From a plasmid: DNA of 59,422 bases. A program made the translations under genes and the position numbers. Positions 12,497 through 51,098 of the stretch are shown in pieces; position 1 is the first letter of the stretch, and the number at the start of each line of letters is the position of its first letter. The stretch lies in sequence record NZ_LC586269.1. One strand, 5' to 3'. Under the pieces are notes generated by a model. That model searched no databases and had not been told where the DNA came from. It saw only the letters and a program-made list of their open reading frames with translations.

Positions 12497-12735
12497 GCGC
12501 CGAGGACCTGGTGGCGTGGATCCGTCCGGCGCGGCCGGCGAGCAGCTGGTGGATCCCGTCGACCTCGATCACGTCCAGGGGGAAGGCCATCGGCGCCGGC
12601 GGCGCCGAGGACCTGGTGCGGTGGATCCGTCCGGCGCGGCCGGCGAGCAGCTGGTGGATCCCGTCGACCTCGATCACGTCCAGGGGATGGCCATCGGCGC
12701 CGGCGGCGCCGAGCACCTGGTGCCGTGGACCCGCC
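12497..12735. repeat. Composite GC-rich repeat, locus A: ~2.3 tandem units of 105 bp
   Basis: Unit (GATGGCCATCGGCGCCGGCGGCGCCGAGGACCTGGTGCCGTGGATCCGTCCGGCGCGGCCGGCGAGCAGCTGGTGGATCCCGTCGACCTCGATCACGTCCAGGG) recurs at four other loci. Confidence 0.8.
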
Positions 12736-12754
12736 AGACGGGAGGGGAATAAAA

Positions 12755-12776
12755 AAGAGGGCGCAAGCGCCCTCTT
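12755..12776 (-). terminator. Hairpin AAGAGGGCGCAAGCGCCCTCTT; reads as a rho-independent terminator on the minus strand for the 13353..12797 operon
   Basis: Perfect stem with T-tract on the minus strand. Confidence 0.6.
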
Positions 12777-12796
12777 CTGGTTTCCCTCTAGTGTTA

Positions 12797-13081
12797 CTAG
12801 AAGGGAACCATATCGTCAGTCCTCAATGGAGCATCGTGCAATAACATCCCAAGCACGCTTTCAGGTACTACCTGACCTGCAAGCTCTTTCGAGCGTGCAC
12901 GCATGGCAGAACGATCCATGATGAACCGTGGATAGTATTGGAGGTTGCGGAAGCCTTGGGCTCGTGCCATCTCTTTCACTTCCTCTAACGAGGGTGCGAA
13001 GAACGTGCAGCCGAAGGTTCCCTCAACGCTGAAGGAGGTAAAGGAATACGCTGCAATGTGCTTCGTGTTCATCAGTTCCAC
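12797..13081 (-). CDS. Hypothetical protein (94 aa), second gene of a coupled pair
   Basis: ORF track; overlaps upstream gene by 10 nt; terminator downstream. Confidence 0.5.
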   Translation of the reverse strand: MELMNTKHIAAYSFTSFSVEGTFGCTFFAPSLEEVKEMARAQGFRNLQYYPRFIMDRSAMRARSKELAGQVVPESVLGMLLHDAPLRTDDMVPF

Positions 13082-13353
13082 TCCTTCACTTTATTGCTGA
13101 CGTTCAACCGTTGGTCATCCCGTATTTCCGCAATGATCTCTGGCTTCACGTCGATTCCCAGATCACGACATTTTCCAACGTAGTAGTCCAGGTCTCGGGG
13201 CATCACTTCATCCAGGTTGGTGTAGACCGGATAGTCTTCATCAGATTTCTTATCGAAGATAATGAGGAAGAAACTCTTAGTTGGATTATCCCAACCCATA
13301 ATAACTTCAAATTTCTTATTCCCAACTTCCGAAGAGAAAAGGTGCTGACTCAT
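13072..13353 (-). CDS. Hypothetical protein (93 aa), acidic; first gene of the pair; conserved promoter-like motif upstream
   Basis: ORF track; upstream motif shared with 13569..13946. Confidence 0.5.
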   Translation of the reverse strand: MSQHLFSSEVGNKKFEVIMGWDNPTKSFFLIIFDKKSDEDYPVYTNLDEVMPRDLDYYVGKCRDLGIDVKPEIIAEIRDDQRLNVSNKVKEWN

Positions 13354-13400
13354 GGTCGGATTCCTGCTTGATATTAAGATATGAGCGTTTCAGACAGTCA
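13354..13400 (-). promoter_or_regulatory. Conserved ~35-nt upstream motif (GCGCTATGACTGTCTGAAACGCTCATATCTTAATATC), copy 1
   Basis: Near-identical to the motif at 13947-13995 (GCACTATGACTGGCTGAAATGCTCATACTTTAAGATC). Confidence 0.5.
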
Positions 13401-13568
13401 TAGCGCCCTGCTACTGTCGACTGAAATACTAGGGCAGAAATCCAGATCAGTAAAGCTCTACACAATATATGCAATTTGTGCAGTCGAATACCCATCTTTG
13501 CATTGCGCGAAAGTGGGTTTTGCAAAAAAAAGAGGAGGTAGCAAAGCTACCTCCCCTCACTTACGACA

Positions 13569-13946
13569 TTAAGACCAGAGGTCTAATGTGTAAGTGCTCT
13601 TGTGATACTTAAGGATTTGGACCGCATCTACGAGTAGAAACGGTTGCTTCCCATAAGTATAGGCATAGATTCTCGTCTCATGAGTAGCGCCACGAGTGCG
13701 CAGGACGAAAAGAGTATTGTGGACGTCGGAATGAAAAATGGATACCCACTCTTCACCCGCGTCACCAGTAAGGCAAATGGGAGTCGGCTCTAGAGGCGTC
13801 TCCCGTCCACCTTGCGCTCTTACGTAGCGGGCTGCATCGATCAACGGAACGAGCGCGTCGTAATCATTGACCAACGTGACCAACCCACGGCTGACTCCAC
13901 CAAGCATGGCTTCGTCGAGGGAATATTGCTTGAGAACAGGTTTCAT
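13569..13946 (-). CDS. Hypothetical protein (125 aa) with the same upstream motif
   Basis: ORF track; motif copy 2 at 13947-13995. Confidence 0.5.
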   Translation of the reverse strand: MKPVLKQYSLDEAMLGGVSRGLVTLVNDYDALVPLIDAARYVRAQGGRETPLEPTPICLTGDAGEEWVSIFHSDVHNTLFVLRTRGATHETRIYAYTYGKQPFLLVDAVQILKYHKSTYTLDLWS

Positions 13947-14109
13947 ATGTCACCTTCAAGATCTTAAAGTATGAGCATTTCAGCCAGTCATAGTGCCCTT
14001 GGTACTGGCGCGTCAGATATTAGACGTCAATCCGCGTCGAGTCCACAGAACACGCGTTCCAGCGTGGTTTCAGTGGGTTCGCACTGCTACCTGGTTCTCG
14101 CTAATTAGG

Positions 14110-14396
14110 GGTGATCGCCTGCATGGCCTGGCCGGCGAGCAGCTGGTGGAGCCCGTTGACCTCGAGACGTCCTGCAGGTGGCCACCCGCACCTGGCCTAT
14201 CCGGGTCAAGGGCCGCGCGCCCGGCTCGTCGGAACGACTGCACCGTTCCGGCGAACGGACGCACGGGCGCAGCGCACCCTTGAACGCCTCTCCCCCTAAC
14301 AGCCTCCGCCGGGGAGTGTGGGGCAGCTCCTCCGCCCCGCGCTCCCGAGCCCTCGGCGGCAAGAGCGGGATGACAAGGGCAGAGCCCTTGGTGTGT
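14110..14396 (+). repeat. Composite repeat, locus B: one partial tandem unit, ~230-bp unique segment, terminal palindrome CAAGGGCAGAGCCCTTG
   Basis: Matches 50697..51098 and reverse complement of 25305..25520. Confidence 0.8.
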
Positions 14397-14524
14397 TGAG
14401 CGCTATATGAAAGGAGGCTCGAACTTTATTAAATCGACTCGTAGCTAATAAAAAAGGGTACTAAGTACCCTTTTCGAATTAACCAAAGTCTTTGATTCAA
14501 CGCATGGCTCTCTTGTTATAAGTG

Positions 14525-16342
14525 TCACTGCTGTATTACTGGTGCTCCGTCCTTTGCCGGATATATTCCGTCACACTTCTTATCGAAGAAGCCTCGGCAT
14601 CCAAAGAACGCGCTGGCTTCCTTACCCTTCTCCTTCTTCTCGATCAGCAGAAGTCCGCGTCCACATTTTGGACAAGGGTGAAGTGGTTCTATCTCGCGGA
14701 GCAGCTTCGCAATTTCGTCCTGCAACTGTTGATCGAAGCCCGCTATAACTGATCGATAATTCGCAGTACCCTTTGCTATTTCGTCCAACTTGCGTTCAAG
14801 TTCCCTGGTGAAATCCACGTCCATAAAGCTGAACCGGTTCAGAAGCACCTGGACCAGTTTCTCGCCACGGTCAGTAGGCTCCAAGAACTTCGTCCCCTTC
14901 TTCAATTGGACATAGCGCCGGGTCTTGGAAATGTTTTCCATAATTGCGGCAAACGACGAAGGCCTTCCGATCCCGCGGCTCTCCAGTTCCTTCACCAACG
15001 AGGCCTCGGTGAAGCGGCGTGCTGCTTTCGTCTTTGTCGTGACGACCTCACCGGAAGTCGCGGTTAGGGATGCGCCTGTCTCCAGCGGCGGAATCGCCCC
15101 TGTCGTGTGCGATACTTCGTCTGGTTTGTCCTCGGCGTCATCCTCGGCCAGGATTGTCTTGTAACCGGGGCTGACCAGCTCGCTATGCTCACCAGTGACA
15201 GCCACTGTCCCATCCAATCCCTCGGGCTTTAACTTGACCTTGGTGACCTTGAACACTGCATCCGCCATCTGACAGGCGACCGTCCGCTTCCAGATCAGTT
15301 GATACAGCTTGCGCTGGGCTTCGTCTTCTCCTGCCTCGAGCCGTGTAATGTCGGTGGGATGGATCCCCTTGTGTGCCTCCTGAGCGTCGGCTTTCGCCTT
15401 CCAGGTCCTGGGTTCGTCAGACAGCGGGAGATTCTGAGCGGCACAATAATCCCGAACGGCCACCAGCATATCGTCGGTGAGGTTCGGGTTGTCGGTACGC
15501 ATATAAGTGATGTGCCCCGCCTCGTACAACTTCTGCGCCGCCTCCATACAGGCCTTCGACCGAAGATTGAGCGCGTTACTAGCGGCCTGTTGAAGCGTAG
15601 ATGTGATGAACGGTTTGAACGGCGAGGACCTGGACTCACCAACGGAGTGCTCGAGGACTGTAAACTGCCGAGCGTTCGCAATACGCTCCGCAGTGGCCAG
15701 GTCGGTGCATTTCTCATCAGGTGCCCAGTCAGCGGACCAACCGCCCTGGAAGGCGAAGCGTGCCGAGTGATGCGTAACCGCAGTGTGGGCGCGGATGAGA
15801 TTTTCGCGTTCCACAACGAGTAACACCGCGACGCTCTGCACTCGACCGGCCGAGTAGTCGTACGTTGCCATCAGTTCCTGGACGATCGGGCTGATGTAGT
15901 AGCCAACGATCCTGTCGAGGATCCTGCGGGCCTCTTGAGCGGCGACCAATCTCACATTGATCTTTCGAGGTTCTGCGACCGCGCGAAGAATCTCCTTCTT
16001 CGAGATCTCCCCGAAGGTGATGCGCTTTGGATCCTGCAGGCCGAGGACTTGCTGGAGGTGCCAGGCGATCGCCTCCCCTTCCCTATCGTCGTCGGATCCC
16101 AGGTAGACCGCTCCGCCTGAGCTTAGCGCTCGCCTGGCTGCGTTCTTCAGGACTTCGGATACTTTCTTGCCCTCCCCTATGAATACATAGTCAGGGCGGT
16201 ATTCAGGACCTGCGACCCCCATTTCATGTTCCGGGAGATCCCGAATATGGCCGAAAGAGGCCTTGACCTCCCAGCCCGGCCCAAGATAGCCCTCGAAGGT
16301 CTTCGCCTTTGCCGGTGACTCTACGATCAGAAGATTGCCCAT
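14525..16342 (-). CDS. topB: Type IA DNA topoisomerase (Topo III-like) with C-terminal zinc ribbon
   Basis: 605 aa; TOPRIM start MGNLLIVESPAKAKT, GxDDDREGE, CPKCG...C zinc ribbon at C-terminus. Confidence 0.9.
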   Translation of the reverse strand: MGNLLIVESPAKAKTFEGYLGPGWEVKASFGHIRDLPEHEMGVAGPEYRPDYVFIGEGKKVSEVLKNAARRALSSGGAVYLGSDDDREGEAIAWHLQQVLGLQDPKRITFGEISKKEILRAVAEPRKINVRLVAAQEARRILDRIVGYYISPIVQELMATYDYSAGRVQSVAVLLVVERENLIRAHTAVTHHSARFAFQGGWSADWAPDEKCTDLATAERIANARQFTVLEHSVGESRSSPFKPFITSTLQQAASNALNLRSKACMEAAQKLYEAGHITYMRTDNPNLTDDMLVAVRDYCAAQNLPLSDEPRTWKAKADAQEAHKGIHPTDITRLEAGEDEAQRKLYQLIWKRTVACQMADAVFKVTKVKLKPEGLDGTVAVTGEHSELVSPGYKTILAEDDAEDKPDEVSHTTGAIPPLETGASLTATSGEVVTTKTKAARRFTEASLVKELESRGIGRPSSFAAIMENISKTRRYVQLKKGTKFLEPTDRGEKLVQVLLNRFSFMDVDFTRELERKLDEIAKGTANYRSVIAGFDQQLQDEIAKLLREIEPLHPCPKCGRGLLLIEKKEKGKEASAFFGCRGFFDKKCDGIYPAKDGAPVIQQ

Positions 16343-16350
16343 TGCTCACC

Positions 16351-16962
16351 TCACCCGACTTTCGCCGCGGTAGTGATCGCCGCGATCTGCTTACGTTGCT
16401 GGTGGTAGTGCTTGATCACTTCATCGAGTCGGGTCATGCATTGCCATATCGGCTTGGCCGCCTTCTTCTCACGCTTCTTGTACTCGCCGTAGTCGATGAA
16501 GCCGGACAGGTACATCTGGCGAAGCGCCTGAGAAATCTCATCGACGAGGACAATCGATCGGACGAAGCGATTGACCAGGGGCCAGGAGTGGCGACCGTCT
16601 ACCACCAACTCATAGGTCTGCTCTTGAGGCGCGCCGAACTCGATGCTCTTGAGCAGAGGATCGGCCATGCGTTCGTCGACCTCATCCCTGATAGTTTTCA
16701 GGGTTTCGGTCAACTTGGCCTCGTAGCTTTCGATGATTTCCCGCAGGCCTGGAATGACCTTTTTGGCCAGTGTTTTGGCGACCAAATGCTCAGGCTTCTT
16801 CGTCGTGCTGAACGATTCGACGGAGAACAGGCTATCGACAACCACCCGCCCGGAGATCCTGCGCGAGGAGGTTTCCCATATCCCAACCACGAACTTGTCG
16901 TGAACCGTAATGACGGTGTTGGCAGCTTTCTTGTTACCAGGAGCGTTCTTCTTTTCCATCAC
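16351..16962 (-). CDS. Hypothetical protein (203 aa) in the par-topB operon
   Basis: ORF track; operon position. Confidence 0.55.
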   Translation of the reverse strand: MMEKKNAPGNKKAANTVITVHDKFVVGIWETSSRRISGRVVVDSLFSVESFSTTKKPEHLVAKTLAKKVIPGLREIIESYEAKLTETLKTIRDEVDERMADPLLKSIEFGAPQEQTYELVVDGRHSWPLVNRFVRSIVLVDEISQALRQMYLSGFIDYGEYKKREKKAAKPIWQCMTRLDEVIKHYHQQRKQIAAITTAAKVG

Positions 16963-17435
16963 TTAATACCCGCAGCTACTCCTCTTAGGGCCAGGATCTT
17001 GCTGGGAGGCAGCGAGCGAATCTGGTCCTTGAGGAAGGCGACCGCAAAACGAAAATTTCGGCTAACAGTTGTCCCTTGGGTCTGGTCGATACCCAAGGGA
17101 ATGTCTGTGCCGCGTGAGTGGTGCTTCACTATGTCCGAAGCGAGTTGTTGCGCATCGACCGACTCGCCTGCCAGGCACCATTCGATTGCGTCGTCGAACA
17201 CATCGAACAGCGTCGGCTTGCCAGCCGCGACCGCTATCTGGTGAGCGTTGTAGGCGGGTAGACCATCGGCCGGGTTGTCCGTTGGACTACCCGGGCACAA
17301 GGCGTCTTCCCAGCGGATACGATAGAGCGTGCGCCCGTCGTGCTGGAATGGAACGTAGTCGGATAGCGTTGCGATTCTGGCAATTGGCATGGGGGTTATT
17401 TCACTTTTCCGCAAGTTCATCCAGGGCTTGAGCAA
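16959..17435 (-). CDS. Hypothetical protein (~150 aa; start uncertain)
   Basis: ORF track; overlaps parB end. Confidence 0.45.
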   Translation of the reverse strand: MLKPWMNLRKSEITPMPIARIATLSDYVPFQHDGRTLYRIRWEDALCPGSPTDNPADGLPAYNAHQIAVAAGKPTLFDVFDDAIEWCLAGESVDAQQLASDIVKHHSRGTDIPLGIDQTQGTTVSRNFRFAVAFLKDQIRSLPPSKILALRGVAAGIK

Positions 17436-18423
17436 GCGCCTCGATCAGCGCGCTCAGATCACCCTGACCCGGTTCGATGTTCAGCAGTACGGCCAGGGCT
17501 TGGGCTCTCTTCGGGGTCAACATGAGAGAGGCGCTGCCGTTGGTTTCAGAATCTGAAACCACTGGGCCCGAAGAGGTGGCAGCCGTATTGGCGCTGTCAC
17601 TCGTTGAAGCGCTACCCGTGGTTGCCGCTCCATCCTCGCTGGAGGGCTGCTGGGTGGTGCCGGTTTCAGAATCTGAAACTGACCCCTGCCCTGCCCCCGG
17701 CGCCGGCGGCTCCGATTTCTTTTTTTCACGCGGCAGCAGCGCCTTGATGGCCGTCTGGATGCTTTCCCCTTTCTCCAGGCGCTTGCTCAGTTTCTTCAGG
17801 GTATCCGGCCCCATCTTGTCGAGCTTTTCCAGGTCGTAGATGATGTTGACGTCCCGGAATTCATCTAGCTTCGCAAACTCCTGTGCCTCGGGGCTCAGCT
17901 TGAAAACCTTCATATAGCGGCTCAGGCGCGACTTGTCCTTGATGCCGTGTACCGCAAGGATTTCCTCAGTGGTGAATCCGAATTCCTCCTTGTCCCGCTT
18001 GATCGAGCATGCGGTTTGCCAAACGGTCAGCCCCTGGCCGAGGACGTTGCCCGTCACATGGTCCATTCGCCGTTCGCGAACGCCACCTTTACTGATGATG
18101 CACGGCAGCAGCTGCACATCATCCGGAGCGTCTTCGGTCGCCCTCCAGCGGCATTCTCCCTCGATGATCTTGTGCTTCCCTGTTTCGTCTGCTGGTTCCA
18201 CCCAAAGAGCTTTTCGGATTCCGTAGTGGCGGCCCTCCTCGAGGGGGATCAGCGCACTCCTGCGGATGCCGGCGATGTGGGCGAGAGTTCTTTCGGCCTC
18301 CCAGTCATCACGGTCTTGCATCGGGTCCGGGTAGAGGTCGGAGCGGTGGATCAGCACGATCCGTTCACGTGGTTCGTTGTCCGACGATTTGCTGTTCAAC
18401 AGTTCGGCGATGGCATCACTCAT
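17401..18423 (-). CDS. parB: ParB-family partition protein; two copies of the TTTCAGAATCTGAAA palindrome lie inside its coding sequence
   Basis: 340 aa; ParB/Srx N-domain; overlaps parA by 4 nt. Confidence 0.8.
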   Translation of the reverse strand: MSDAIAELLNSKSSDNEPRERIVLIHRSDLYPDPMQDRDDWEAERTLAHIAGIRRSALIPLEEGRHYGIRKALWVEPADETGKHKIIEGECRWRATEDAPDDVQLLPCIISKGGVRERRMDHVTGNVLGQGLTVWQTACSIKRDKEEFGFTTEEILAVHGIKDKSRLSRYMKVFKLSPEAQEFAKLDEFRDVNIIYDLEKLDKMGPDTLKKLSKRLEKGESIQTAIKALLPREKKKSEPPAPGAGQGSVSDSETGTTQQPSSEDGAATTGSASTSDSANTAATSSGPVVSDSETNGSASLMLTPKRAQALAVLLNIEPGQGDLSALIEALAQALDELAEK

Positions 18424-19229: not shown

Positions 19230-19231
19230 AG

Positions 19232-21340: not shown

Positions 21341-21426
21341 AGAACACCCTCTACCTTCGTGCCCAAAAAACCTTCCGCGAAGCTTCAATCATCCACCGCC
21401 AGGAGGGAAGGGCGGCGCGTCCAAAA

Positions 21427-21756: not shown

Positions 21757-23140
21757 TTGTGCTACGATAAAATCATAGAGAAAAGCATAGAGAAAGAGCA
21801 TGAAAAAGCCCAAAGCAAAGAGCCAGGAGCGCCCCGACCAGGTGGTCGGGGTGACGCCAGCGTCTGCTGGCATCATGGCTCCGAAACGCATGCGTTTCTT
21901 TGCCGAAGAGCGCGCCGCTGCATGCAGCGTCGTGCCTGCCCTTTACGGGACAGGCATACACCCCCGGAGGAGCGCTCCGGGGGTGTGCAGGACTCCACGA
22001 CGCATGCGTCGTTCCGCCCTCTTTTTCTGCCTGCGCCCTGGACGGGCTTGTCCGAAAAATTCACCCGCGCGCCCGTCCACTCTCTTCGAGAGCGGACCCC
22101 CCAGCTTCCTGGGATTGCGCAACGCTTCGCCGCGGTCCTTCGTCCCTTGCTCAGCTGCTCCACCCCGGAACCCGGGGGGTCCGCTCTCGCCGACTTCAGC
22201 CCTGGCGGGCTTCAGTAGTCGAGCGCAGACGGGCGCGCGCTGCACGTCGCCTGATGCTTCGCACTCCAGGTCCCGGCCTGGACGGCCGTCCCTGGAGCAG
22301 ACCGGCATTCGGCCCTGGGGGGCCTCGGTGCCTTGCGAGCCGCGTGGGCGCGTCTCGCATCTGTCAGGCTTCTGTTTGTTTCGGCCCACCTCGCTGACGC
22401 GAACTGGGCCGCGCGCTGCCGGAACAGCTTTTGGCTGTTCCGGAGAGCGGGGCGCCTGCCGACCTCCGCTCGACGGCTCCGCCATCGCTGCGCATCGCAT
22501 TGCCCTCGCCGACCCATTCGGGCGGCTGGGCTCGCTCGCTTGCTCGGCGAAGCGTCGTCACCTGGGCCGAGTTGCTGGGCGCCCCCCGAAACAGCTTCTG
22601 GCTGTTTCGGAAAAGCCGGAACAGCTTTTGGCTGTTCCGAAGAGCAGGGGAGCTTGCCGACCTCCGCTCGACGACTCCGCCATCGCCGCGCATCGCATTG
22701 CCCTCGCCGACCCGTTCGGGCGGCTGGGCTCGCTCGCTTGCTCGGCGAAGCGTCGTCACCTGGGCCGAGTTGCCGGGCTCCCCCCGAAACAGCTTCTGGC
22801 TGTTTCGGAAAAGCTGGGCGCCGACTTTGCCTCGCTCGACGGCTTCGCCCTGCGCTTCACTTCGCATCGTCTGCGCCGGCCTTTACAGGCGGCTGACTCG
22901 CTCGCTCGCTTGGTCAAGCGTCGTTCCCTACACTGCGTGCCGGGGCGCCCAATCGAAACAGCTTGTGGCTGTTTCGAAAGAGCCGGAGAGCTTCGCCGCC
23001 CTGTGCAGCTATCGGCGACAAAAGCTCGTCGTAATCAAACACCTGTACCCGACTGCCCTGCGGAAACAGCTCGCGGCTGTTTCCGAGGGCCGGAACAGCT
23101 TCTGGCTGTTCGGAGTCGGGAGATGAGTAAGGAGCGAGAG
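21757..23140. repeat. 1.4-kb GC-rich noncoding region with ~7 palindromic iterons (CGRAACAGCTNNTGGCTGTTYCG) and two ~170-bp direct repeats (22440-22610, 22640-22800); candidate oriT or oriV
   Basis: Repeats seen directly; ORFs called here are frame artefacts. Confidence 0.6.
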
Positions 23141-23141
23141 A

Positions 23142-23900
23142 TTGACTGAGCGTCTAATGGACGGTTGGACCGGGTCCCGAGGTAAGGAGCGGAGCCGGGA
23201 AAAAATCAAAGAGGTCGTGCGGTGGCTCGCCCTCTTTGACTTCTCCAACCAATCGCTGTTGGCCAAGGCCTACGGCGCTGAGGTCAGAGGTCAGACTGTG
23301 TTCTTCAGACGCCTTGAGGAGTCTCGCCTAGTCGTTGTTACGAAGGCGCCGGGTCTCGACTGGAAAATCTACTCGCTGAGCCAGAGCGGGATGGAGATGG
23401 CAAGGGTGCTGCTGCCGCACCTGGATCTCAAGCGACGGCGAACGCCGTCGTGGATCCAGCTGGTCCATGCATTCTCCATCCAGGGGGCGATCATGGCGCG
23501 ACGGGATGAGATCAGCGGCTTCATGCCAGAAAAAGAGCTTTCCAAGATGAAGGCCAACCATTTGCCGGATGCTGTTCTCGAATACAAGAATGGGAAGAAG
23601 GTCGCTTTGGAAGTGGAGTTGAACCATAAAAGCGTTGGTCGGATTTACAATATCTTCCTGTCGCACCTCAAGAACATCCATAAAGGTCACTACGATCAGG
23701 TTCTCTATCTGTTTTCAAGCGAGCAGCTCAAGAACAACTACGAAGAGAAGTACAAGGTAAATATCTGGCCGATGTACATTATTAGCGAGCGAGGAAAGCT
23801 TGTTCTCAGCCCTGAACACCGTGGTGGATTCGATGCTGCCAAGATGGTTCATCCCACTGATAAGTTCAGGTTCATCTGCGAGGAGCTGTATTCATTATGA
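23142..23900 (+). CDS. Winged-helix plus PD-(D/E)xK-like nuclease-fold protein (252 aa); candidate DNA-processing protein
   Basis: Motif ...PDAVLEY...KKVALEVELNHK; iterons end 30 bp upstream; stop overlaps start of the VirB11-like gene (ATGA). Confidence 0.45.
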   Translation: MTERLMDGWTGSRGKERSREKIKEVVRWLALFDFSNQSLLAKAYGAEVRGQTVFFRRLEESRLVVVTKAPGLDWKIYSLSQSGMEMARVLLPHLDLKRRRTPSWIQLVHAFSIQGAIMARRDEISGFMPEKELSKMKANHLPDAVLEYKNGKKVALEVELNHKSVGRIYNIFLSHLKNIHKGHYDQVLYLFSSEQLKNNYEEKYKVNIWPMYIISERGKLVLSPEHRGGFDAAKMVHPTDKFRFICEELYSL

Positions 23901-25248: not shown

Positions 25249-25304
25249 ATCAATTCCGCACGTTGTGCGGCCAAGGGGAATGATTCCCCTTGGAACCCCC
25301 ATAT

Positions 25305-26050
25305 CTCAACACCAAGGGCTCTGCCCTTGTCATCCCGCTCTTGCCGCCGAGGGCTCGGGAGCGCGGGGCGGAAGAACTGCCCCACACTCCCCGGCAGAGG
25401 CTGTCCAGGGGAGGGGGCTCAAGCGTACGCTCCGCCCGTGCGTCCGTTCGCCGGAACGGTGCAGCCGTTCCGACGAGCCGGGCGCGCGGCGCTTGACCCG
25501 GATAGGCCAGTCGAAGAGCACAGAGTGCGTGACCTGGTGCCGCGGATCCGTCCGGCGCGGCCGGCGAGCAGCTGGTGGAGCCCGTCGACCTCGATCACAT
25601 CCAGGGGATGGCCACCGGCGCCAAGGACCTGGTGCCGCGGATCCGTCTGGCGCGGCCGGCGAGCAGCTGGTGGAGCCCATCGACCTCGATCACGTCCAGG
25701 GGATGGCCATCGGCGCCGGCGGCGCCGAGGACCTGGTGCCGTGGATCCGTCCGGCCTGGCCGGCGAGCAGCTGGTGGAGCACGTCGCCCTCGATCACGCC
25801 CAGGGGATGGCCATCGGCGCCGGCGGCGCCGAGCACCTGGTGGCGTGGATCCGTCCGGCGTGGCCGGCGAGCAGTTGGTGGAGCGCGTCGACCTCGATCA
25901 CTTCCAGGGGATGGCCACCGGCGCCGGCGGCGCCAAGGACCTGGTGCCGCGGATCCGTCTGGCGCGGCCGGCGAGCAGCTGGTGGAGCCCGTCGACCTCG
26001 ATCACGTCCAGGGGATGGCCATCGGCGCCGGCGGCGCCGAGGACCTGGTG
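25305..26050 (-). repeat. Composite repeat, locus C (inverted): palindrome, ~230-bp unique part and ~5 tandem units of 96/105 bp
   Basis: Tandem periodicity measured between GGATCCGT landmarks (96 and 105 bp). Confidence 0.85.
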
Positions 26051-27352: not shown

Positions 27353-27356
27353 TCTG

Positions 27357-27692: not shown

Positions 27693-27694
27693 CC

Positions 27695-44022: not shown

Positions 44023-44530
44023 CCTTAATCAGTCCGCTTTAAAAAGAATCAGAAGAGGGGGTGTCGCTTCGCTCCACCCGATAATGCCTCGGCAAGCCGA
44101 GAGGCTATCTATATGCAGGGGTTCCCCCTGCAGAAAAGCAGGAAATGCCGCCCCGTCTTCGCGCTACGCGCGCGGGGTCCCCCAAGCGAGCCTGCCTCTT
44201 CCGTGGCAACGCTCGCTGGGCTAAAGGGATGAACATTCCTCGGAGTTCTGTCGGTACAGCAAGTGCTCCACTGCCGCTGCAGTGGTCACTCCCGCTGTGC
44301 GCACGGTCGCTACGCTCCTAGTAATCAGTGAAGGGGGTGGGGAGCGCTGGTTTCCCACTCTACGCGCCCCTACGGTGCCGACAGCGCCTGTCGTAAGGCC
44401 AGCCCATAGGGGCGGGGGCGGGAGTCTTCGTCTCCGCTGGTGGGGCCTTCCAGGGGCATTGCCGGCAATGCCCTGGTGATCCTGATCCTTTCCCTCTCCT
44501 GTTGTTCTGTGCCGCGCTCGCTGCGCGCCT

Positions 44531-44745
44531 TTTCGCACGCCCTTCAAGTTGGCCGGGCCCGGCCGACCGGCAAGGGGCGCTGCGCTGGAAATCCTCACCC
44601 GTTCCCCTCGCTGCGCTCGGCGCCTGCGGCTTCCGGTTTCCCCCTGGCCAGTCGCCCTCTTGGGCCAGGCCTCTCCGGGCTCACGGCGAAAAGATCACTC
44701 AGCGAAGCAAACACCACCACAGCAACATCACCAGGAGACCCCTGA
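44531..44745 (+). promoter_or_regulatory. Conserved ~215-bp leader, copy 1, upstream of the DUF3560 gene
   Basis: ~80% nucleotide identity to 47994..48212 but no shared reading frame, so conservation is at the DNA/RNA level. Confidence 0.55.
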
Positions 44746-45652
44746 CATGCATCACGAAGAGCAAAAGCAACAGCCAGAGCAAGAGCCGGCTCAAGAAGCA
44801 TCTAGCAAAGCAACCCGGGCAGGGCAGGAAGTGAGCCCCGAGCAAGTTGGCCGCGAGTTGAACTGGTACGAACAGAAGCTCGCCGATCGGAGGGAACGCC
44901 TCCAGGAACGTGCCGCGAAGATCTCAGACGAGAGTGGCGTGCTCTACCAGCGAGCGAAGACCATGGCCAGCGCTATCCCTTTCGGGCAACCGATCCTGGT
45001 AGGGCATCACAGTGAAGGTCGGGACCGTCGCTACCGCGACCGGATCCACAGCACTTACGGCAAGGCGTTCGCGTTGCAGGACAAGGCGAAGCATTACGAG
45101 CAGAAGGCCGCGGCCGTGGGGACCGGGGGAATCTCGAGCGACGACCCGGACGCCATCGAGAAGCTCCAGGCCGAGTTGCAGCAGCTGGAGGTGAACCAGC
45201 AATGCATGAAGGTCGCCAACCAGGTGATCCGGAAGCACAAGACCCTCGAGGCTCGACACGCCGCCTTGGTTGCGCAGGGTTTCAGCGAGAGCCTGGCCAG
45301 CCAGATCCTGACGCCCGACTGCTTCGGCGGCATCGGCTTCGCTTCCTACGCCCTGTCGAACAACAACGCCAATATCCGGCGGATACGTCAGCGCATCGAG
45401 GACCTGCAGAAGCGCCGGGAAGCCTCCGACGTGGAGGTTGAGGCGGATGGCTACACGTACCGGGAGGACGTCGATGAGAACCGGGTGATGTTCATCTTCC
45501 CGGGCAAGCCGGATGAGCCAACCCGGCAGTTGCTGCGACAGAACGCGTTCAAGTGGAGTCCACGCCGGGGCGCTTGGGTACGCCAGTTGAACAACGCCGG
45601 CCGTTGGGCTGCCCGCCAAGTCCGCAAGTCACTGGGCGAGGCCCTCGAATAG
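44746..45652 (+). CDS. DUF3560-like plasmid protein (start at MHHEEQKQQ)
   Basis: Motifs VGHHSEGRDRRYRDR ... FKWSPRRGAWVR; track ORF 44549.. over-extended into the leader. Confidence 0.55.
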
Positions 45653-45699
45653 CTACCGGCCATGCCCCGGCCCTTGCCGGGGCTTCGGTCTCAACTAGT

Positions 45700-45842
45700 C
45701 GCCGTCGCCGAGGCCTGATGGCGCGGATCAGTCCGGCGCGGCCGGCGAGCACCTGGTAGAGCAGTCGACCTCGATCACGCCCAGGGGATGGCCACCGACG
45801 TCGGCGGCGCCGAGCACCTGGTGCCGTGGATCCGTCCGGGGC
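45700..45842 (+). repeat. Composite repeat, locus D (1.3 tandem units only)
   Basis: Same 105-bp unit. Confidence 0.7.
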
Positions 45843-45876
45843 CTATCTACTCGACAAACGGTCGGATATTGATTTC

Positions 45877-45910
45877 ATAATAATAAGAATAATGCTATTC
45901 TTATTATTAT
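45877..45910. promoter_or_regulatory. AT-rich perfect inverted repeat ATAATAATAAGAATAA-TGC-TATTCTTATTATTAT: kfrA operator candidate
   Basis: 25 bp upstream of kfrA start. Confidence 0.5.
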
Positions 45911-45934
45911 CTTATCCCCACTTCCGGAGGGCTT

Positions 45935-47017
45935 ATGTCGGAACATGAAGGTAACGACCAGGTCGCAGACGTTCGGGCTCGTGTTTTCCGGGAGGCCGAT
46001 CGCCTCTATGAAGAACTGGGGCGTGAGCGCTTCCCGCAGGTGGAAGCGGTGCGCCGGGCTGCCCGGGCGGACATGAACACGGTCACACGGGTCATGAAAG
46101 AATGGCGGCATCTGCAAACCGCCAAACCTGAGCCGGTCCACCTGGAACTGCCGCCTGAACTGCACAGGGAGGCACTTACCCTGGGCTCCGCCTTGTGGAG
46201 TGCTGCCACGGAAATGGCCAATGCGAGCCTGCGAAAGGCCGAGGCAGACTGGGACCAGGAGAGGGCGGATGCTGAATCGACCCGGATAGAACTGTCGCAG
46301 TTGTACGAAGAGCAGCAAGGAGACCTGGAGCGGCTGCGCGAGGACAAACAGGCCTTACAGCAGGCGTTCGAGGAGCAGGTTCTAGTGATCGATGGGCTGC
46401 GCCAGAGTTTGGCCCAGCAGACGTCCCGCGCAGAGTCGGCCGAGGCCAGGACCGAGGAAATCACTCGCCGCGTCGAGGACCAGAAAATCGAGCTGCAACG
46501 CGCCCGGGACGAGTTGTCCGAGGTGCGGAACGAGCTGGTTTCGGCCCGTAAGATCCATCAGACCGAACTGGACCAGATCAAGGCTGTGGCCGCCCAGGAG
46601 ATCGACAAGGCCAAGGCGGAACTCGCTGAGGCGAAGGGCAGGGCGGAGGCCCAGCGCGACGATCTGGCAGCCCGTGTCGAGGACCTACAGCATCGTCTTG
46701 ATACGGCGATGAAGGACCTCTATCGCTTGCAGGCAGCAGAAGAGGCCGCGAGTGAACAGCGCAAGCGCGCTGCGACCGAGGCTCATGCTCAGGCGGAACG
46801 CTTCACCCGGGTACAGGGCGAACGTGACGCCGCCCGCAAAGAAGCCCAGGTGGCTGGACTACGAGCCGCGCGCGCCGAAGGTGAACTTGATAGTCTTCGG
46901 GAGAGCAACGCTCAGCTGCTAGACCGCCTCGGTAGCGCCGCAGTCCAACAGCCCGCGAAGATCAAGGCCAAGACGCCCCGCAAGCCCGCCAAGGGCGATT
47001 CCGAGAGCAAGGAGTAA
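45935..47017 (+). CDS. kfrA: KfrA-like protein (N-terminal DNA-binding domain plus long Ala/Glu-rich coiled coil)
   Basis: 360 aa. Confidence 0.7.
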   Translation: MSEHEGNDQVADVRARVFREADRLYEELGRERFPQVEAVRRAARADMNTVTRVMKEWRHLQTAKPEPVHLELPPELHREALTLGSALWSAATEMANASLRKAEADWDQERADAESTRIELSQLYEEQQGDLERLREDKQALQQAFEEQVLVIDGLRQSLAQQTSRAESAEARTEEITRRVEDQKIELQRARDELSEVRNELVSARKIHQTELDQIKAVAAQEIDKAKAELAEAKGRAEAQRDDLAARVEDLQHRLDTAMKDLYRLQAAEEAASEQRKRAATEAHAQAERFTRVQGERDAARKEAQVAGLRAARAEGELDSLRESNAQLLDRLGSAAVQQPAKIKAKTPRKPAKGDSESKE

Positions 47018-47021
47018 CGCT

Positions 47022-47438
47022 ATGAGCATTTCGAACAATGTTGTGTCGAGATCGATCCTGCAGGCTGCTCGCTTCATTGATGAGTGGCAGGAGGCTGATC
47101 TCGATCACCTGACCGAAAGCCAGATCCGAGCTGCTGTTGCATTCGCCGTCAGGCTTCACGAAGGCTTTCAAGAAAGCGTGCTACAGCGGCTCGTGAACGA
47201 GTCCTGTCACGACGAGTATCTCGAGTACAAAGGATGGGAGGAGGCGTTGCTCAATGCGGACGGTCGCGTTGCGAGCAATCCGTTTGCCGAGTTTGGTTGG
47301 TGGCATCGTATCGCTAACGTAATGCTGTCCACCGCTGACAACAACGTCGGCAGTTCCGGCGGTTCCTGGGGCGGTAACACTCATTATCGCCTCATGGATA
47401 TATTCAAAAGAAATTTCCAACAGTGGTATGAAGATTAA
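47022..47438 (+). CDS. Hypothetical protein (138 aa)
   Basis: ORF track. Confidence 0.4.
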   Translation: MSISNNVVSRSILQAARFIDEWQEADLDHLTESQIRAAVAFAVRLHEGFQESVLQRLVNESCHDEYLEYKGWEEALLNADGRVASNPFAEFGWWHRIANVMLSTADNNVGSSGGSWGGNTHYRLMDIFKRNFQQWYED

Positions 47439-47760
47439 TTGTAATATATTGCGGAGTTGTCCTGTGGATGTGAAAGTTGATTCGTATGTCGTCGATTTTG
47501 AATACAAGATTATTGCTGGAACCCAAGAGTATCTTGGAAAGAGTCGGGCGGCTTTCCCGGCTGCCGTAGTTCCAGTGAGTCTTTCCGACGAAGGAGCCCG
47601 CAAGAGGATCGCCGAAATCATTAATGGAAAGATGATCGAGATTCTGCCGCAAGTCATCGCTGATAATAATATTGACGTTGACTCTATCTCCGGCAGGGTC
47701 TCTTTTAATGTCGGAAACCTCAAGACCACACGGGTGAGCACCGTCGTTTCTTTGGGATAG
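47428..47760 (+). CDS. Hypothetical protein (110 aa), lower GC
   Basis: ORF track. Confidence 0.4.
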   Translation: MKINCNILRSCPVDVKVDSYVVDFEYKIIAGTQEYLGKSRAAFPAAVVPVSLSDEGARKRIAEIINGKMIEILPQVIADNNIDVDSISGRVSFNVGNLKTTRVSTVVSLG

Positions 47761-47993
47761 GTAGCCGAGGCCTGCGGCCCGGGCTGTCGTGCTACGCATC
47801 GAGCCGCCGGCGGCGTCTCGCCCCTTCGGGCTTCCATCCTTCCCTCCCTGCGGTCGGCTCTCGCTTCCGCTCCCACCAGGCTCTGCCTGGCACTCGCTGC
47901 GCGCTCCGCGCGCCCGGGCTTGCGCCCGCGTTGTCCCTTTCCAGCCCCTCCGGTGAGCGTCGCGGCCGAACTTCGGCGCTTCCCTGGATGCCC

Positions 47994-48212
47994 TTTCGCA
48001 CGCCCTAAACGTTGACCTGGCCCGGCCGGCCAGCAAGGGTCGCTGCGCTAGAAATCCTCACCCGTTCCCCTCGCTGCGCTCGGCGCATGCGGCTTCCGGT
48101 TTCTCCCCTTGCCGCCCGACCTCTACGGCCAGGCCCACTCCGGGCTCACGGCGAAAGGTCACTCAGCGAAGCAAGTTCAACCACCACAGCAACATCCCAG
48201 GAGAAAACCGAA
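47994..48212 (+). promoter_or_regulatory. Conserved leader, copy 2, upstream of the ParB-nuclease gene
   Basis: Paralogue of 44531..44745. Confidence 0.55.
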
Positions 48213-50186
48213 ATGAACAACAACACTCAGAAGCAACAGCAAAAGCCGGCTCAAGGAGCATCTAGCAAAGCAAGGGGGAAGGCCAAGAGCGCTGCCGCGT
48301 CGAAACTGCCGGGCGGGGTGTGGAAAGAGATTCCGCTCAAGAAGCTCCGTCTGTGGGCGAAGAACGTGCGGGTATCTGCCGCCAGTGCCGAGGCCGGGGA
48401 TGCCCTGGAAGCGAGCCTGCAATCCCAGGGGCTGCTCCAGAACCTCGTCGTCATCGAGGCCGAGGATGGTTTCTACGACGTTGCCGCCGGCGGTCGCCGC
48501 TTGGCGAAGCTGCATGCCCTGGTCGAGAAGAAGAAGCTCAGCGCCGACACCCTCATCATGTGCCAGATCGTGGACGAGAGCACCGGGCTTACTGCGAGCC
48601 TGTCCGAGAACGTCCAGCGCGAAGCCATGCACCCGGCCGACGAGTTCATCGCGTTCCAGGAACTGTCCAACGCCGGCATTCCTGTTGCTGATATCGCCGC
48701 AAGCTTCGGCGTCACCCCGGTGGTGGTGAAGCAACGCCTCAAGCTGGCCAACCTCTCCCCAAGGCTGATCCAGGCCTACCGCGATGGAGAGGCGAACATG
48801 GAGCAGTTGCAGGCCCTGGCCATCTGCGACAACCACGAAATTCAGGAAGCGGCATTCTTCGACGTACAGTCGTGGATGCGTCAACCCTACGAACTGCGCC
48901 GGGCGGTGACCAAGGGAGAAACCCTGGTGCGCCATGAACCCCTGGCGAGATTCGTCGGACTGGAAGCCTATGAGCAAGCCGGCGGCGCAGTACGCCGCGA
49001 CCTGTTCGGCAACGCGGAGGACTCCTACATCACGGACCTGCCGCTCCTCGACAAGCTCGCTATCGAGAAGCTGGAGCCTATCGCCGAGCCGATCCGGGCG
49101 GAGGGCTGGGGGTGGGTTGAAGTCATGCCCCGCTTCAACGCCTCAGAACTGTACAACTTCGGACGGATTCACCCTCTGCCCGTCGAGTTGACCCCGGAAC
49201 AACAGGCCGAGCGTGCCAGTCTCAAGGCCGCTCTCGATCAGTTGGAAACCGAGATCGAAAACGCCGTCGAGGCCGAGGATTTCGACACCATCGAGCGCCT
49301 GGAGCAGGAGCAAGGGGAAGCTGAAGATCGTCTCCACGCCCTGGAGAGCGGAGCGGTAAGGTCCTACGACCCGGAGGCGATGACCAAGGCGGGATGCATC
49401 ATCAGTGTTGGGCGCTCCGGAGACGTGGACGTCTGGCGTGCCCTGGTCAAGCCCGAAGACAGGGCTGCCGTCGAAGGGGCCGAGAACCAGGGGACGGACG
49501 GCCAGAGCACCGACGACGCACCGAAGGAAAAAACGGCGCGCCTGTCGGACCGCATGGGCCGCCAGTTGACCGCTCACAAGACCGCAGCCCTGCAAGTCGA
49601 ACTGGCCCGAAATTCAAAAGTGGCCCTGGTTGCAGTGGTCCACAAGCTGGCCATCCAGATCATCCACAGCGACCACTCCCCGCGCTTCGCCGTACCGGTC
49701 GGCGTCAGCGTCTCACAGCGCGGCGGCCTGACCGAATACGCTTCCGACCTCAAGGACTCGGCCGTCCTCCAGGCACTCGAAGACATGCGTGGGCAGTGGC
49801 GGGAGCGACTGCCGAGCGAACCCCGCGAACTGTTCGCCGCCCTCCTCGATCTGTCGATGGCTGACCTCAACGACCTGCTCGCCTTCTGCGTTGCCACCGG
49901 CGTCGACGTCGTGAGCGACAAGGGCACCGATGGCCAGAGCGGTGCGGACGTCCTGGCCCAAACCCTCGAACTGGATATGCGCAACTGGTGGAAGCCGACC
50001 GCCGACGCCTATTTCCGTGAGGTGCCCAAGGGGTTGACCCTGGAAGCCATGCAGACCATCGCACCGGCAGAAGTGGCCCGCCTCTCCACCCTCAAGAAGA
50101 ACGACCTGGCCAACGAGGCCGGACGCCTGGCCGAAGGGTCGAACTGGCTGCCGGCGATCCTCGCTAGCCACGAGCCGAAGGCGTAA
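48213..50186 (+). CDS. ParB/Srx-domain (ParB-like nuclease) protein, 657 aa, leading-region type
   Basis: ParB N-domain ...LLQNLVVIEAEDGFYDVAAGGRRLAKLHAL...; track ORF 48012.. over-extended. Confidence 0.7.
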   Translation: MNNNTQKQQQKPAQGASSKARGKAKSAAASKLPGGVWKEIPLKKLRLWAKNVRVSAASAEAGDALEASLQSQGLLQNLVVIEAEDGFYDVAAGGRRLAKLHALVEKKKLSADTLIMCQIVDESTGLTASLSENVQREAMHPADEFIAFQELSNAGIPVADIAASFGVTPVVVKQRLKLANLSPRLIQAYRDGEANMEQLQALAICDNHEIQEAAFFDVQSWMRQPYELRRAVTKGETLVRHEPLARFVGLEAYEQAGGAVRRDLFGNAEDSYITDLPLLDKLAIEKLEPIAEPIRAEGWGWVEVMPRFNASELYNFGRIHPLPVELTPEQQAERASLKAALDQLETEIENAVEAEDFDTIERLEQEQGEAEDRLHALESGAVRSYDPEAMTKAGCIISVGRSGDVDVWRALVKPEDRAAVEGAENQGTDGQSTDDAPKEKTARLSDRMGRQLTAHKTAALQVELARNSKVALVAVVHKLAIQIIHSDHSPRFAVPVGVSVSQRGGLTEYASDLKDSAVLQALEDMRGQWRERLPSEPRELFAALLDLSMADLNDLLAFCVATGVDVVSDKGTDGQSGADVLAQTLELDMRNWWKPTADAYFREVPKGLTLEAMQTIAPAEVARLSTLKKNDLANEAGRLAEGSNWLPAILASHEPKA

Positions 50187-50195
50187 GGGGGTCAC

Positions 50196-50540
50196 ATGAA
50201 AAAGCGTGGAGCGCCACTGATGTGGCGCTACTCGCTCCGTTGGTGCCTGCCGCATAGACCCTGCCCAGGCCGACGAGAGCTGATGGTCAAATACACCGTG
50301 CCCGGGGCGCCTATCCCCACCAAGATTCGCGAGTTATGGAAGGAGTACCAGGGCCAGGGATACGGCGTCTGCATCGACTTCCCCCCCTCCAAGGCCGTCC
50401 AGCGCTGGAGTGCTGAGCGCAAAGCCGAGGCTCGCCGGCGAAAGATGGTGAAGCGGATCGAGAAGACCGCCCCACTCTTCGCCCAGGAACTGATCGCCCG
50501 CGAGTTCCAGGAGCGAGGCGCCTACTTCAACGGCGAGTAG
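50196..50540 (+). CDS. Hypothetical protein (start uncertain)
   Basis: ORF track. Confidence 0.3.
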   Translation: MKKRGAPLMWRYSLRWCLPHRPCPGRRELMVKYTVPGAPIPTKIRELWKEYQGQGYGVCIDFPPSKAVQRWSAERKAEARRRKMVKRIEKTAPLFAQELIAREFQERGAYFNGE

Positions 50541-50696
50541 TCCCCCAGGCCCGCACCCGCGGGCCTTTTCTATGGCCGCGCGAGAGCCACGCCCTGCGCG
50601 GAACAAGCCCAACGTCGAACTTCGTTCGACTAGCCCTTGCCCCTTCGGGGTCGCTTACGCGATTCCTTGCCCTCCCCCAAACCGCTAGGTGCGATC

Positions 50697-51098
50697 GTCG
50701 AGCACCTGGTGCCGCGGATCCGTCCGGCACTGCCGGCGAGCAGCTGGTGGAGCCCGTCGACCTCGAGACGTCCTGCAGGTGGCCATCGGCGCCGGCGGCG
50801 CCGAGCACCTGGTGCGGTGGATCCGTCCGGTACGGCCGGCGCGCAGTTGGTGGAGCCCGCCGACCTCGAGACGTCCTGCAGGTGGCCATCAGCGCCGGCG
50901 TTTCCGGGTCAAGCGCCGCGCGCCCGGCTCGTCGGAACGGCTGCATCGTTCCGGCGAACGGACGCACGGGCAGAGCGCACGCTTGATCCCCCTCCCCTGG
51001 ACAGCCTCCGCCGGGGAGTGTGGGGCAGCTCTTCCGCCCCGCGCTCCCGAGCCCTCGGCGGCAAGAGCGGGATGACAAGGGCAGAGCCCTTGGTGTTA
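50697..51098 (+). repeat. Composite repeat, locus F: 2 tandem units, unique part and palindrome
   Basis: Matches loci B and C. Confidence 0.85.

Follow-up and report, generated by a model that had tools for sequence, protein, structure and literature searches.

A folded element shared with filamentous phages, a candidate single-strand origin, and an unrelated 104-bp minisatellite at module junctions of a Pseudomonas plasmid

Conversion of single-stranded DNA (ssDNA) to double-stranded DNA is the sole replication step that needs only host enzymes (PMC5714925). Folded elements that act on single strands have been described in the F plasmid, which carries several Frpo/ssi (single-strand initiation) elements close to ssb and to anti-defence genes (PMC11541004); the Frpo stems present -35/-10 hexamers and lie on the template (T) strand of downstream genes. 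Another structured non-coding module, REx-C, is conserved and exchanged among Pseudomonas replicons (Bardaji et al. 2017, PMC5304414). Here we analyze the 59,422-nt plasmid sequence NZ_LC586269.1 (the window, i.e., the whole stretch at its full length), in which repeats at five loci (L1–L5) consist of two unrelated components: a folded element of ~197 nt that is shared with filamentous phages, and a GC-rich tandem unit of mostly 104 bp. As the joint best explanation we judge it probable, on balance, that the folded element is a host-dependent ssi or single-strand origin (sso), i.e., a minus-strand origin, and that the tandem units are a minisatellite. The closest relatives of the window are P. 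aeruginosa plasmids of ~50 kb, pPA7790 (NZ_CP015000; 97.5% identity over 92% of a 24-kb query) and pMS14403A, and by its sequence the window is a P. aeruginosa resistance plasmid of the IncpPA7790 type, a lineage name coined in PMC10311859.

A preliminary description had assigned the repeats to one composite family. The five loci exist as described and were recovered with Tandem Repeats Finder (TRF), a repeat finder and sensitive blastn, but the composite family did not hold: unit and shared segment are unrelated in sequence, with Smith-Waterman scores no better than those of shuffles, and their distributions differ. IncpPA7790 plasmids carry both, a lineage of the p1011-KPC2 type carries units only, and P. 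syringae-group PFP plasmids, P. fluorescens pA506 and others carry the segment only. What had been described as a ~230-bp unique segment is indeed present in three copies, 92-96% identical to each other and all finishing in the hairpin CAAGGGCAGAGCCCTTG that had been pointed out; it is, however, ~201 bp long and also found outside the plasmid. The suggestion of a structured nucleic acid likewise applies to this segment, which is folded and conserved, and not to the units, which gave no RNA or DNA fold signal on either strand (z = +0.3 to +1.3).

The fold was derived from an alignment of 31 sequences less than 93% mutually identical, taken from inoviruses, the plasmids pPSR1, pA506, pPVG23 and pPA7790, and the three window copies. 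In the RNAalifold prediction, a long imperfect hairpin (~80 nt) precedes three or four shorter ones. This consensus comprises 47 pairs with 98.1% of cells paired, and 22 of the pairs show compensatory double changes, as against 8.5 +/- 1.8 in shuffled alignments (0/500) and 3-9 when the pairing partners were slid by 1-3 columns. Because G-U cells (~90) far exceed A-C cells (~10), with U-G present in 20, 16 and 24 of the 31 sequences at three pairs, the folded strand is assigned as the + strand. Taken singly, copy 3 folds with z = -3.4 using RNA and -3.5 using DNA parameters, and none of 200 shuffles was as stable.

The element is ~90% identical to positions 6886-7082 of phage Pf1, within the annotated orf110, and to the region within PA0719 of Pf4/Pf5-type prophages. 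The preliminary description had argued that the repeats are non-coding, which we confirm, and had named location inside a conserved annotated gene as an argument to the contrary; such a location does exist in the Pf phages, although conservation does not extend to a coding frame. The length of the apical segment, in 256 instances, is 24 nt in 135, 25 nt in 90 and 26 nt in 25, and in 89 of 237 instances every sense frame across the element is closed. PA0719 and orf110 match no Pfam family (the neighbouring PA0718 is PflM/DUF5447). PA0719 has been treated in the literature as a protein, listed as "unknown", whose N-terminus is conserved and whose C-terminus diverges (PMC12328805), and synthesis of the replicative form is unaffected in PA0719 start-codon mutants (PMC12328805, PMC7549136). 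Here, conservation of the same DNA is explained by base pairing, together with length variation that breaks the frame. The Pf data and the length variation fit a non-coding element under structural constraint. We also observed that the open reading frames (ORFs) at Pf1 NC_001331 6815-7147 (orf110), AY324828 3370-3747 (PA0719) and 6725-6967 of the Pf-type locus L025 are largely translations of the folded element, and that the reported N- and C-terminal pattern of PA0719 fits frame-shifting variation in hairpin-loop length.

A covariance model, R1, built from the alignment of 31 sequences, detected the element exactly three times in the window, with scores of 197-198 bits, and not at all at L4 or in the p1011 lineage. 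In Pf1 and in Pf4/Pf5-type prophages, the element lies immediately upstream of the gene 5 ssDNA-binding-protein gene; in the PFP plasmid pPSR1 and in pA506, it lies between ssb and stbB/traL. Larger collections were scanned with one exact core pattern, GCCGCGCNCCCGGCTCG...GAACGGANGCACGGGC, which was found in at least 120 IMG/VR contigs of 6-15 kb (both of two contigs examined carry a Zot gene, and one an integrase too) and in 114 stretches of species-representative genomes, almost all of Pseudomonadaceae. The latter include further contigs and plasmids of 2.1-2.7 kb. The element was also found in a 2150-bp P. veronii plasmid, directly after rep, and in a 7-kb "plasmid" that is the replicative form of a filamentous phage with Zot and a G2P-type initiator. 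None of the 4227 Rfam covariance models reached its gathering score at the five loci, where matches were at chance level only (E = 0.7-4.4), and the open-access papers and preprints searched describe neither the folded element nor the unit. A separate observation concerns plasmid Drgb7 (L012), in which diverged copies at 2932-3082 (+) and 5829-6023 (-), scoring 48 and 41 bits, flank repB/repA of a RepA-RA2 plasmid in a layout reminiscent of RSF1010 ssiA/ssiB.

The strand on which the element resides is consistent across replicons. It is the Zot strand in 14 of 14 tblastn matches as well as in sequences L013 and L025, and the strand of the phage genes in Pf1 and in a Pf4-type prophage; the coding strand of inoviruses is the packaged strand. 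In all four miniplasmids with a Rep_1 initiator (PF01446, pC194/pUB110-type), the element follows rep on the same strand, and a single CTTGATA, the pC194/phiX174-type nick heptamer, lies on that strand just upstream of rep, which places the element on the displaced plus strand. It accompanies three unrelated rolling-circle initiators: Rep_1, G2P (both identified with Pfam) and the PA0727 type, whose protein has no Pfam match and whose initiator role is taken from PMC4863604. The element is also present in theta/conjugative plasmids.

Conserved intrastrand pairing, location on the strand that becomes single-stranded and independence of the replicon's own initiator are among the characteristics of an ssi/sso, and the element shows all three. 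Since the replicons that carry the element share an ssDNA stage, their initiators differ and conversion is left to the host, we read the element as an ssi or minus-strand origin; its anatomy, family membership, covariation and strandedness are shown, the priming function and the polarity of replication inferred. Once the strand is exposed as ssDNA, one of the host's priming factors, RNA polymerase, primase or PriA, would recognise the fold, and synthesis of the complementary strand would begin. Exposure would occur on the displaced plus strand of rolling-circle replicons, in packaged phage DNA and on the lagging-strand template of theta plasmids. The copies in the window lie at 14.2 kb (+), 25.3 kb (-) and 50.9 kb (+) around rep at 43-44 kb, with the same symmetry in pPA7790. 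This arrangement is symmetric about an axis through rep and its antipode, and bidirectional replication from the rep region would put all three copies on the lagging-strand template.

Several points weigh against an ssi/sso. A single sequence folds about equally well on both strands, so that the strand call comes from the comparative data. The symmetry argument is weak, being drawn from three copies, and the cumulative GC skew would put the origin near 23 kb, not at rep; we discarded GC skew as a guide to replication direction, as it is dominated by gene orientation. The stem contains no sigma-70-like -35/-10 pair and in this is unlike Frpo. In pA506, the strand that bears the element is the sense strand of ssb/traL, to the left of the probable oriT-nikA; by analogy with R64-type plasmids it would be the non-transferred strand, which makes a role in the conjugation recipient doubtful. 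Finally, the Pf4 region belongs to the most highly transcribed phage operon (PMC12328805), and a function at the RNA level is possible.

Such an RNA function could be that of a cis-acting leader, of a processing or stability element for the downstream genes of ssDNA-binding or partition proteins, or of a small RNA, and we regard it as an alternative of low probability. G-U pairs are frequent; both before g5p in the Pf phages and in the ssb-stbB interval of PFP plasmids, the element has sense orientation; no Pf4 transcript is more highly expressed in biofilms than PA0717-0719 (PMC12328805); and the variants L010, L041 and L046 finish with a GC hairpin followed by a T run. However, there is no conserved upstream promoter, the flanks diverging directly 5' of GGTCAAG, and none was found in the window. 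Two of the three window copies converge on neighbouring genes with nothing downstream, and in the Rep_1 miniplasmids the element follows rep instead of preceding a gene. The feature common to the replicons in which it occurs is an ssDNA stage.

The similarity to Pf phages also raises the idea that the element is, or includes, the signal for packaging into Pf virions, so that carrier plasmids would hitch-hike as ssDNA in Pf filaments, as natural phagemids. The ~90% identity to Pf1 and Pf4 would agree with this, as would the long, imperfect hairpin 1 of ~80 nt on the packaged strand, which resembles the packaging signal of Ff phages, the production of single-stranded circles by Rep_1 miniplasmids, and the additional 3' sequence that the L3 copy has in common with Pf prophages. 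Yet the element is conserved across inoviruses whose Zot proteins are only 24-48% identical and whose initiators are unrelated, and it is also present in plasmids of P. syringae and P. fluorescens, a range that fits a host factor better than phage capsid proteins; moreover, one plasmid copy is on the opposite strand. Packaging is therefore improbable in our estimate. We rate no higher a combined version, in which the element would be a joint Pf packaging and minus-origin module and both IncpPA7790 and the 2-kb Rep_1 plasmids would be natural phagemids spread by Pf virions; the adjacent minisatellite would then give homology for exchange of the element module. The extra 3' hairpin of copy 2 and the ~90% identity would fit an exchange of sequence, in either direction, between the plasmid lineage and Pf-like phages.

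Identity with REx-C, i.e., an extra copy of that replication-control (antisense RNA/incompatibility) module, was considered since the ~200-bp segment has blastn matches in PFP plasmids and pA506, and pPA7790 is listed in PMC5304414. The published REx-C of pPA7790 lies elsewhere, upstream of rep at c46,674-46,481 (supplement of PMC5304414). The PFP and pA506 matches are located between ssb and stbB, not before rep; the element has no similarity to the window's own REx-C region, which we placed through synteny with pPA7790; and the covariance model finds nothing in the rep region of pA506. Position and sequence refute this identity, to which we give practically no credence. SaL4/5 of the RepJ origin was likewise rejected as a relative of the element, there being no model match in the pA506 rep region.

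Table 1. Positions of tandem units and folded-element copies at the five loci, with the rep gene of the window
Feature	Coordinates	Strand	Remarks
L1 array, 2.26 units (105 + 104 + 27 bp)	12498-12733	+	TRF period 105; blastn register
L2 partial unit, 0.65 unit, unit positions ~31-99, 'B' subtype CCTCGAGACGTCCTGCAGG	14125-14192	+	
Folded element copy 1 (L2)	14194-14399 (shared segment 14194-14394)	+	Model R1 196.8 bits, E = 8e-49
Folded element copy 2 (L3)	25275-25508 (shared segment 25308-25508)	-	R1 198.1 bits at 25304-25500
L3 array, 5.0 units (92 + 4x104 + 16 bp)	25531-26050	+	Opposite to adjacent element
rep gene, RepA-RA2 family	42946-43827	+	Reference point for element orientation
L4 array, 1.3 units	45706-45839	+	Between DUF3560-gene terminator and kfrA promoter/operator
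L5 array, 2.0 units (103 + 102 bp), 'B' subtype	50696-50900	+	Downstream of ParB-like gene
Folded element copy 3 (L5)	50897-51101 (shared segment 50897-51098)	+	R1 197.8 bits

The arrangement of the loci is given in Table 1. At L2, the partial unit adjoins the 5' end of element copy 1, which converges on topB and has no gene downstream. L3 had been reported as inverted; this is true of the 200-bp segment, while the units there, as at all five loci, are on the + strand in the blastn register. The extra 3' hairpin of copy 2, CCAAGGGGAATCATTCCCCTTGG (25275-25300), also follows the element in Pf prophages (locus L025). L5 lies downstream of the ParB-like gene and of a terminator-like hairpin (50547-50566), and a 116-aa hydrophobic ORF (51189-51539) comes after element copy 3.

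The tandem units are repeated with periods of 102-105 bp, mostly 104, and not, as had been proposed, with exactly 105 or 96 bp as multiples of three: start-to-start spacings are 105 and 104 at one array, 95, 104, 104 and 104 at another and 103 at a third. The units are therefore out of frame with one another. Contrary to the earlier statement that no long ORF spans the loci, L3 is crossed by ORFs of 263, 252 and 168 aa, in all three + frames; with the frame rotating at each 104-bp unit, they are artefacts of the 73% GC content. A protein-coding repeat was accordingly rejected, as periods of 104, 103 and 95 bp dominate and all + frames are open through GC content. The units are not a chance pattern, a 30-base unit pattern giving 4 matches against 0 expected. 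The high density of palindromes noted previously is real: ten 6-bp palindromes per unit compare with 3.6 +/- 1.8 in shuffles (6/2000 reach 10) and with 2.1 on average in 104-bp stretches taken from other GC-rich parts of the plasmid. We found neither a sigma-70 promoter nor an intrinsic terminator inside the loci, so the terminator role once envisaged is not supported.

Head-to-tail copies and copy-number polymorphism at orthologous sites identify the units as a variable-number tandem repeat (VNTR), i.e., a minisatellite, in agreement with the VNTR-like character suggested for this part. In the window, pPA7790 and pMS14403A, respectively, L1 contains 2.3, 4.3 and 9.2 copies, L3 5.0, 4.8 and 7.7, L4 1.3, 1.3 and 0.9, and L5 2.0, 0.9 and 0.9; overall, copy number at orthologous sites ranges from 0.2 to 9.3. 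Each array is made up of n full units and a partial unit of 16-32 nt, starting near unit position 1-8 and ending at varying positions. Within the window, units are 89-99% identical within arrays and 77-93% between arrays; between the two plasmid lineages, identity is about 80-90%, with no outstanding invariant motif. One site of the p1011 lineage holds 1.2 units in p1011-KPC2 and NZ_CP068679 and a ~20-nt remnant in pCR1, and the p1011-KPC2/pCR1 difference is bordered by the direct repeat CCAGGTCYTCAGCGCC, which shows expansion and collapse by recombination or slippage between terminal repeats. In general, arrays expand and contract by slippage or unequal recombination between the terminal direct repeats and can collapse to a ~20-nt remnant.

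The minisatellite has a narrow distribution. A distant blastn search with L5 against 72,556 plasmids gave 177 records, and unit matches are confined to plasmids of P. aeruginosa and P. paraeruginosa, in two lineages: IncpPA7790 and a second that includes p1011-KPC2, pR31-KPC and the P. paraeruginosa plasmid pCR1, where the units are degenerate. No match was found in 185,579 species-representative genomes (exact pattern, one genome per species), in IMG/VR and JGI metagenomes (two exact patterns, which diverged relatives would escape), or in 120 inovirus loci and PFP plasmids. In sister plasmids, the annotation pipeline calls "hypothetical proteins" inside the arrays. The arrays adjoin cis-acting DNA: res/resolvase at L1, the folded element at L2, L3 and L5, and the kfrA operator at L4. 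Those of the p1011 lineage adjoin iteron-like inverted repeats of 19 bp. The units themselves were rejected as iterons, being 104 bp long versus ~17-22 bp, with the nearest array 1.9 kb from rep; the iterons of the p1011 family are 12-bp sites (PMC8532800).

The placement at module junctions stated in the preliminary description was borne out, as several gene-content breakpoints between sister plasmids adjoin the loci. Three of ~7 synteny breaks do so: beside the L1 end, where 438 bp have no counterpart in pPA7790; at the 5' edge of L5, where a 2.3-kb segment is present in pPA7790 only; and beside the L3 element, where a small ORF is replaced. In the ancestral backbone, L1 adjoins resolvase/res, and the large accessory segment of the window is inserted ~18 bp from the 5' edge of L1. 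We therefore regard the units as supplying portable homology at module junctions.

Multiple dispersed copies at intergenic junctions might also suggest a miniature inverted-repeat transposable element (MITE)-like non-autonomous mobile element, as first proposed, or a chromosomal repeat of the repetitive extragenic palindromic (REP) type. This is already contradicted by the observations and has very little probability left: terminal inverted repeats and target duplications are missing from every boundary, sister plasmids have the repeats at the same five places, where the loci are orthologous and fixed, the arrays start near unit position 1-8 and stop at varying positions, and the species-representative genomes, one per species, contain no match to the exact pattern. 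On this last ground, we also rejected REP sequences and bacterial interspersed mosaic elements (BIMEs).

A recombination-hotspot function had been suggested as well. The E. coli Chi octamer GCTGGTGG occurs once per unit on the same strand, 8 of the 25 GCTGGTGG sites of the window being inside units and all of these +, and Chi action is orientation-dependent. Nevertheless, arrays of Chi-like sites seem to us a very improbable explanation. Pseudomonas RecBCD is reported to be blind to E. coli Chi, its own Chi being GCTGGCGC (PMC5959072); the octamer varies among arrays (CCTGGTGG, GTTGGTGG, GCTGGTGA); and CTG-GTG is a favoured codon pair, so that background enrichment is expected of an observation made post hoc. 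The absence of GCTGGCGC from the plasmid can be counted in favor of Chi-like arrays. This word, reported as the Chi of P. syringae RecBCD (PMC5959072), occurs 0 times on both strands of the 59-kb window, against 7-14 expected, and 0, 1 and 1 times in pPA7790, pMS14403A and pR31-KPC, against 3-12 expected each; the 7-mer GCTGGCG is depleted two- to five-fold. Its scarcity looks like avoidance of the host Chi or of another target with the same word.

The main alternative for the units is protein binding. In this alternative, the arrays would be centromere-like or global-regulator binding sites for ParB, KfrA or another plasmid protein, which we hold to be possible with low probability. The 6-bp palindrome excess, the co-orientation of all five window arrays, their position beside res, the kfrA operator, iteron-like repeats and the folded element, and the retention of the blocks CCTGGTG, GGATCCGTCCGGC, GCTGGTGG, CCTCGA and TGGCC in two plasmid families all speak for it, and a 104-bp period of about ten helical turns would hold binding sites in phase. 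On the other hand, no single palindrome is invariant, no candidate binding protein was found, one site tolerates 0.2 to 9 copies without visible consequence, and the arrays at two p1011-family loci are oppositely oriented. We found no evidence for a sequence-specific function of the units and regard them as a plasmid-specific GC-rich minisatellite that is probably neutral or selfish. Against neutrality, the conservation of ~80-95% between families and the threefold palindrome excess are unexpected for junk DNA and may reflect protein binding; the palindrome excess, the period of ~ten helical turns and the uniform orientation are not explained by a minisatellite.

Two further features were observed next to the arrays of related plasmids. 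Inverted pairs of a 19-bp sequence, TTCGTCACTTCGGGGACCG, are found in both plasmid lineages of P. aeruginosa, the sequence being absent from the window: at 38942, 39619 and 39672 in pPA7790 (L002), 34468 in pMS14403A (L003), 398/561/1103 in L006, 2415/2956/3119 in L009 and 337/405/946 in L007. The 'iterons' reported from pMOS94 (PMC6614342) have a near-identical sequence. In the p1011 lineage, a minisatellite unit lies between the two members of such a pair, beside an AT-rich stretch that may be an origin. In addition, a hairpin-rich non-coding region of ~650 bp is conserved after the array in the p1011-KPC2 lineage (L006 4400-5050; L007 3150-3450; L008 3510-3700); it is unmatched by the covariance model and could be a different cis-acting element (ssi- or oriT-like).

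Elsewhere in the window, the res region apparently houses a transposon/integron block, with the plasmid resolvase gene (51811-52431) on one side and minisatellite L1 on the other. The accessory region is flanked by a 113-nt inverted repeat of 72% identity (12363-12475/52534-52646), and a 41-nt inverted repeat of 95% identity (8839-8879/56186-56226) resembles Tn21-family terminal repeats. A 300-bp stretch present twice at 100% identity (3177-3476 and 4672-4971, spaced 1495 bp) covers two 263-aa ORFs (3236-4027 and 4731-5522) and apparently reflects duplication of a gene cassette; an attI/AAC_AAD_leader Rfam match (79.6 bits; 6419-6487) lies upstream, which places the stretch in a class 1 integron array. 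Two tandem repeats are coding or lie within ORFs: a 156-bp repeat with a 78-bp sub-period (39972-41043; 6.9 copies, 95% identity) is in frame in a 910-aa ORF (38984-41716) labelled YadA-like in sister plasmids and varies in copy number among plasmids, and a 198-bp duplication (22418-22814; 2.0 copies, 95% identity) lies within the 449-aa ORF 21800-23149, which has no Pfam match and adjoins T4CP/VirB11-like genes. A 12-bp repeat in 3.5 copies (21769-21809) occupies a divergent promoter region that may be the oriT area. Similar 5' stretches (44518-44644/47981-48107, 127 nt at 87% identity; 44690-44813 and 48154-48273) and Gln/Lys-rich short repeats occur in the DUF3560 gene and in the large ParB-like gene, which suggests a common N-terminal module or upstream region.

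The folded element is a concrete candidate for the complementary-strand origin of Pf phages, for which we found no mapping in the open-access literature. The nucleotide conservation of PA0719/orf110 is suggested to reflect a folded nucleic-acid element and not a protein, and these genes probably need re-annotation. A module of ~200 nt with ~75-90% identity connects filamentous phages, rolling-circle miniplasmids, virulence plasmids of plant pathogens and clinical carbapenemase plasmids of Pseudomonas; such sharing points to a host-specific step in ssDNA processing that could limit or enable host range. Model R1 could annotate the element in hundreds of genomes in which it is now unannotated or a "hypothetical protein". 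The 104-bp minisatellite is a ready typing marker for IncpPA7790 and p1011-KPC2-type plasmids; assembly errors and spurious ORF calls probably arise from it, as does recombination between co-resident plasmids. Should the plasmids be phagemids after all, the ssDNA of resistance plasmids could spread in Pf virions, particles found in abundance in biofilms of P. aeruginosa and in cystic-fibrosis lungs.

Among known systems, the minisatellite is most comparable to the CUP elements of IncN plasmids and to sopC of F, which are also repeated non-coding DNA at backbone module junctions and palindrome-bearing arrays; it differs in that we found neither a promoter or operator in the 104-bp unit nor a protein that binds it, its copy number is highly unstable and it is restricted to two P. 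aeruginosa plasmid lineages. The folded element resembles REx-C as a conserved structured module of Pseudomonas replicons and differs from it in sequence, in position (REx-C lies before rep) and in proposed mechanism (antisense RNA for REx-C). Like the Frpo/ssi elements, it is a folded single-strand element with several copies per plasmid, and relatives of the window plasmid carry acr genes. In contrast to Frpo, it is on the sense strand of its neighbours and retains just TTGA(C), conserved at the base of hairpin 1; a Frpo-type ssDNA promoter was rejected on account of this strand placement and the lack of a sigma-70-like pair. The minus-strand origin of the Ff phages (M13/f1) and the ssoA, ssoT, ssoU and ssoW origins of rolling-circle plasmids are the closest counterparts. 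The element has no sequence similarity to a described sso or ori(-) that could be compared and, unlike them, is present in three copies on a large theta/conjugative plasmid. In common with them, it is a folded, multi-hairpin non-coding sequence of ~150-300 nt, located on the ssDNA strand, initiator-independent, of limited host range and found in both phages and plasmids; orientation specificity, established in principle for such origins (PMC5714925), would by analogy apply to its activity. The folded element thus appears to represent a new sequence family of the long-known functional class of ssi, sso and ori(-) sites.

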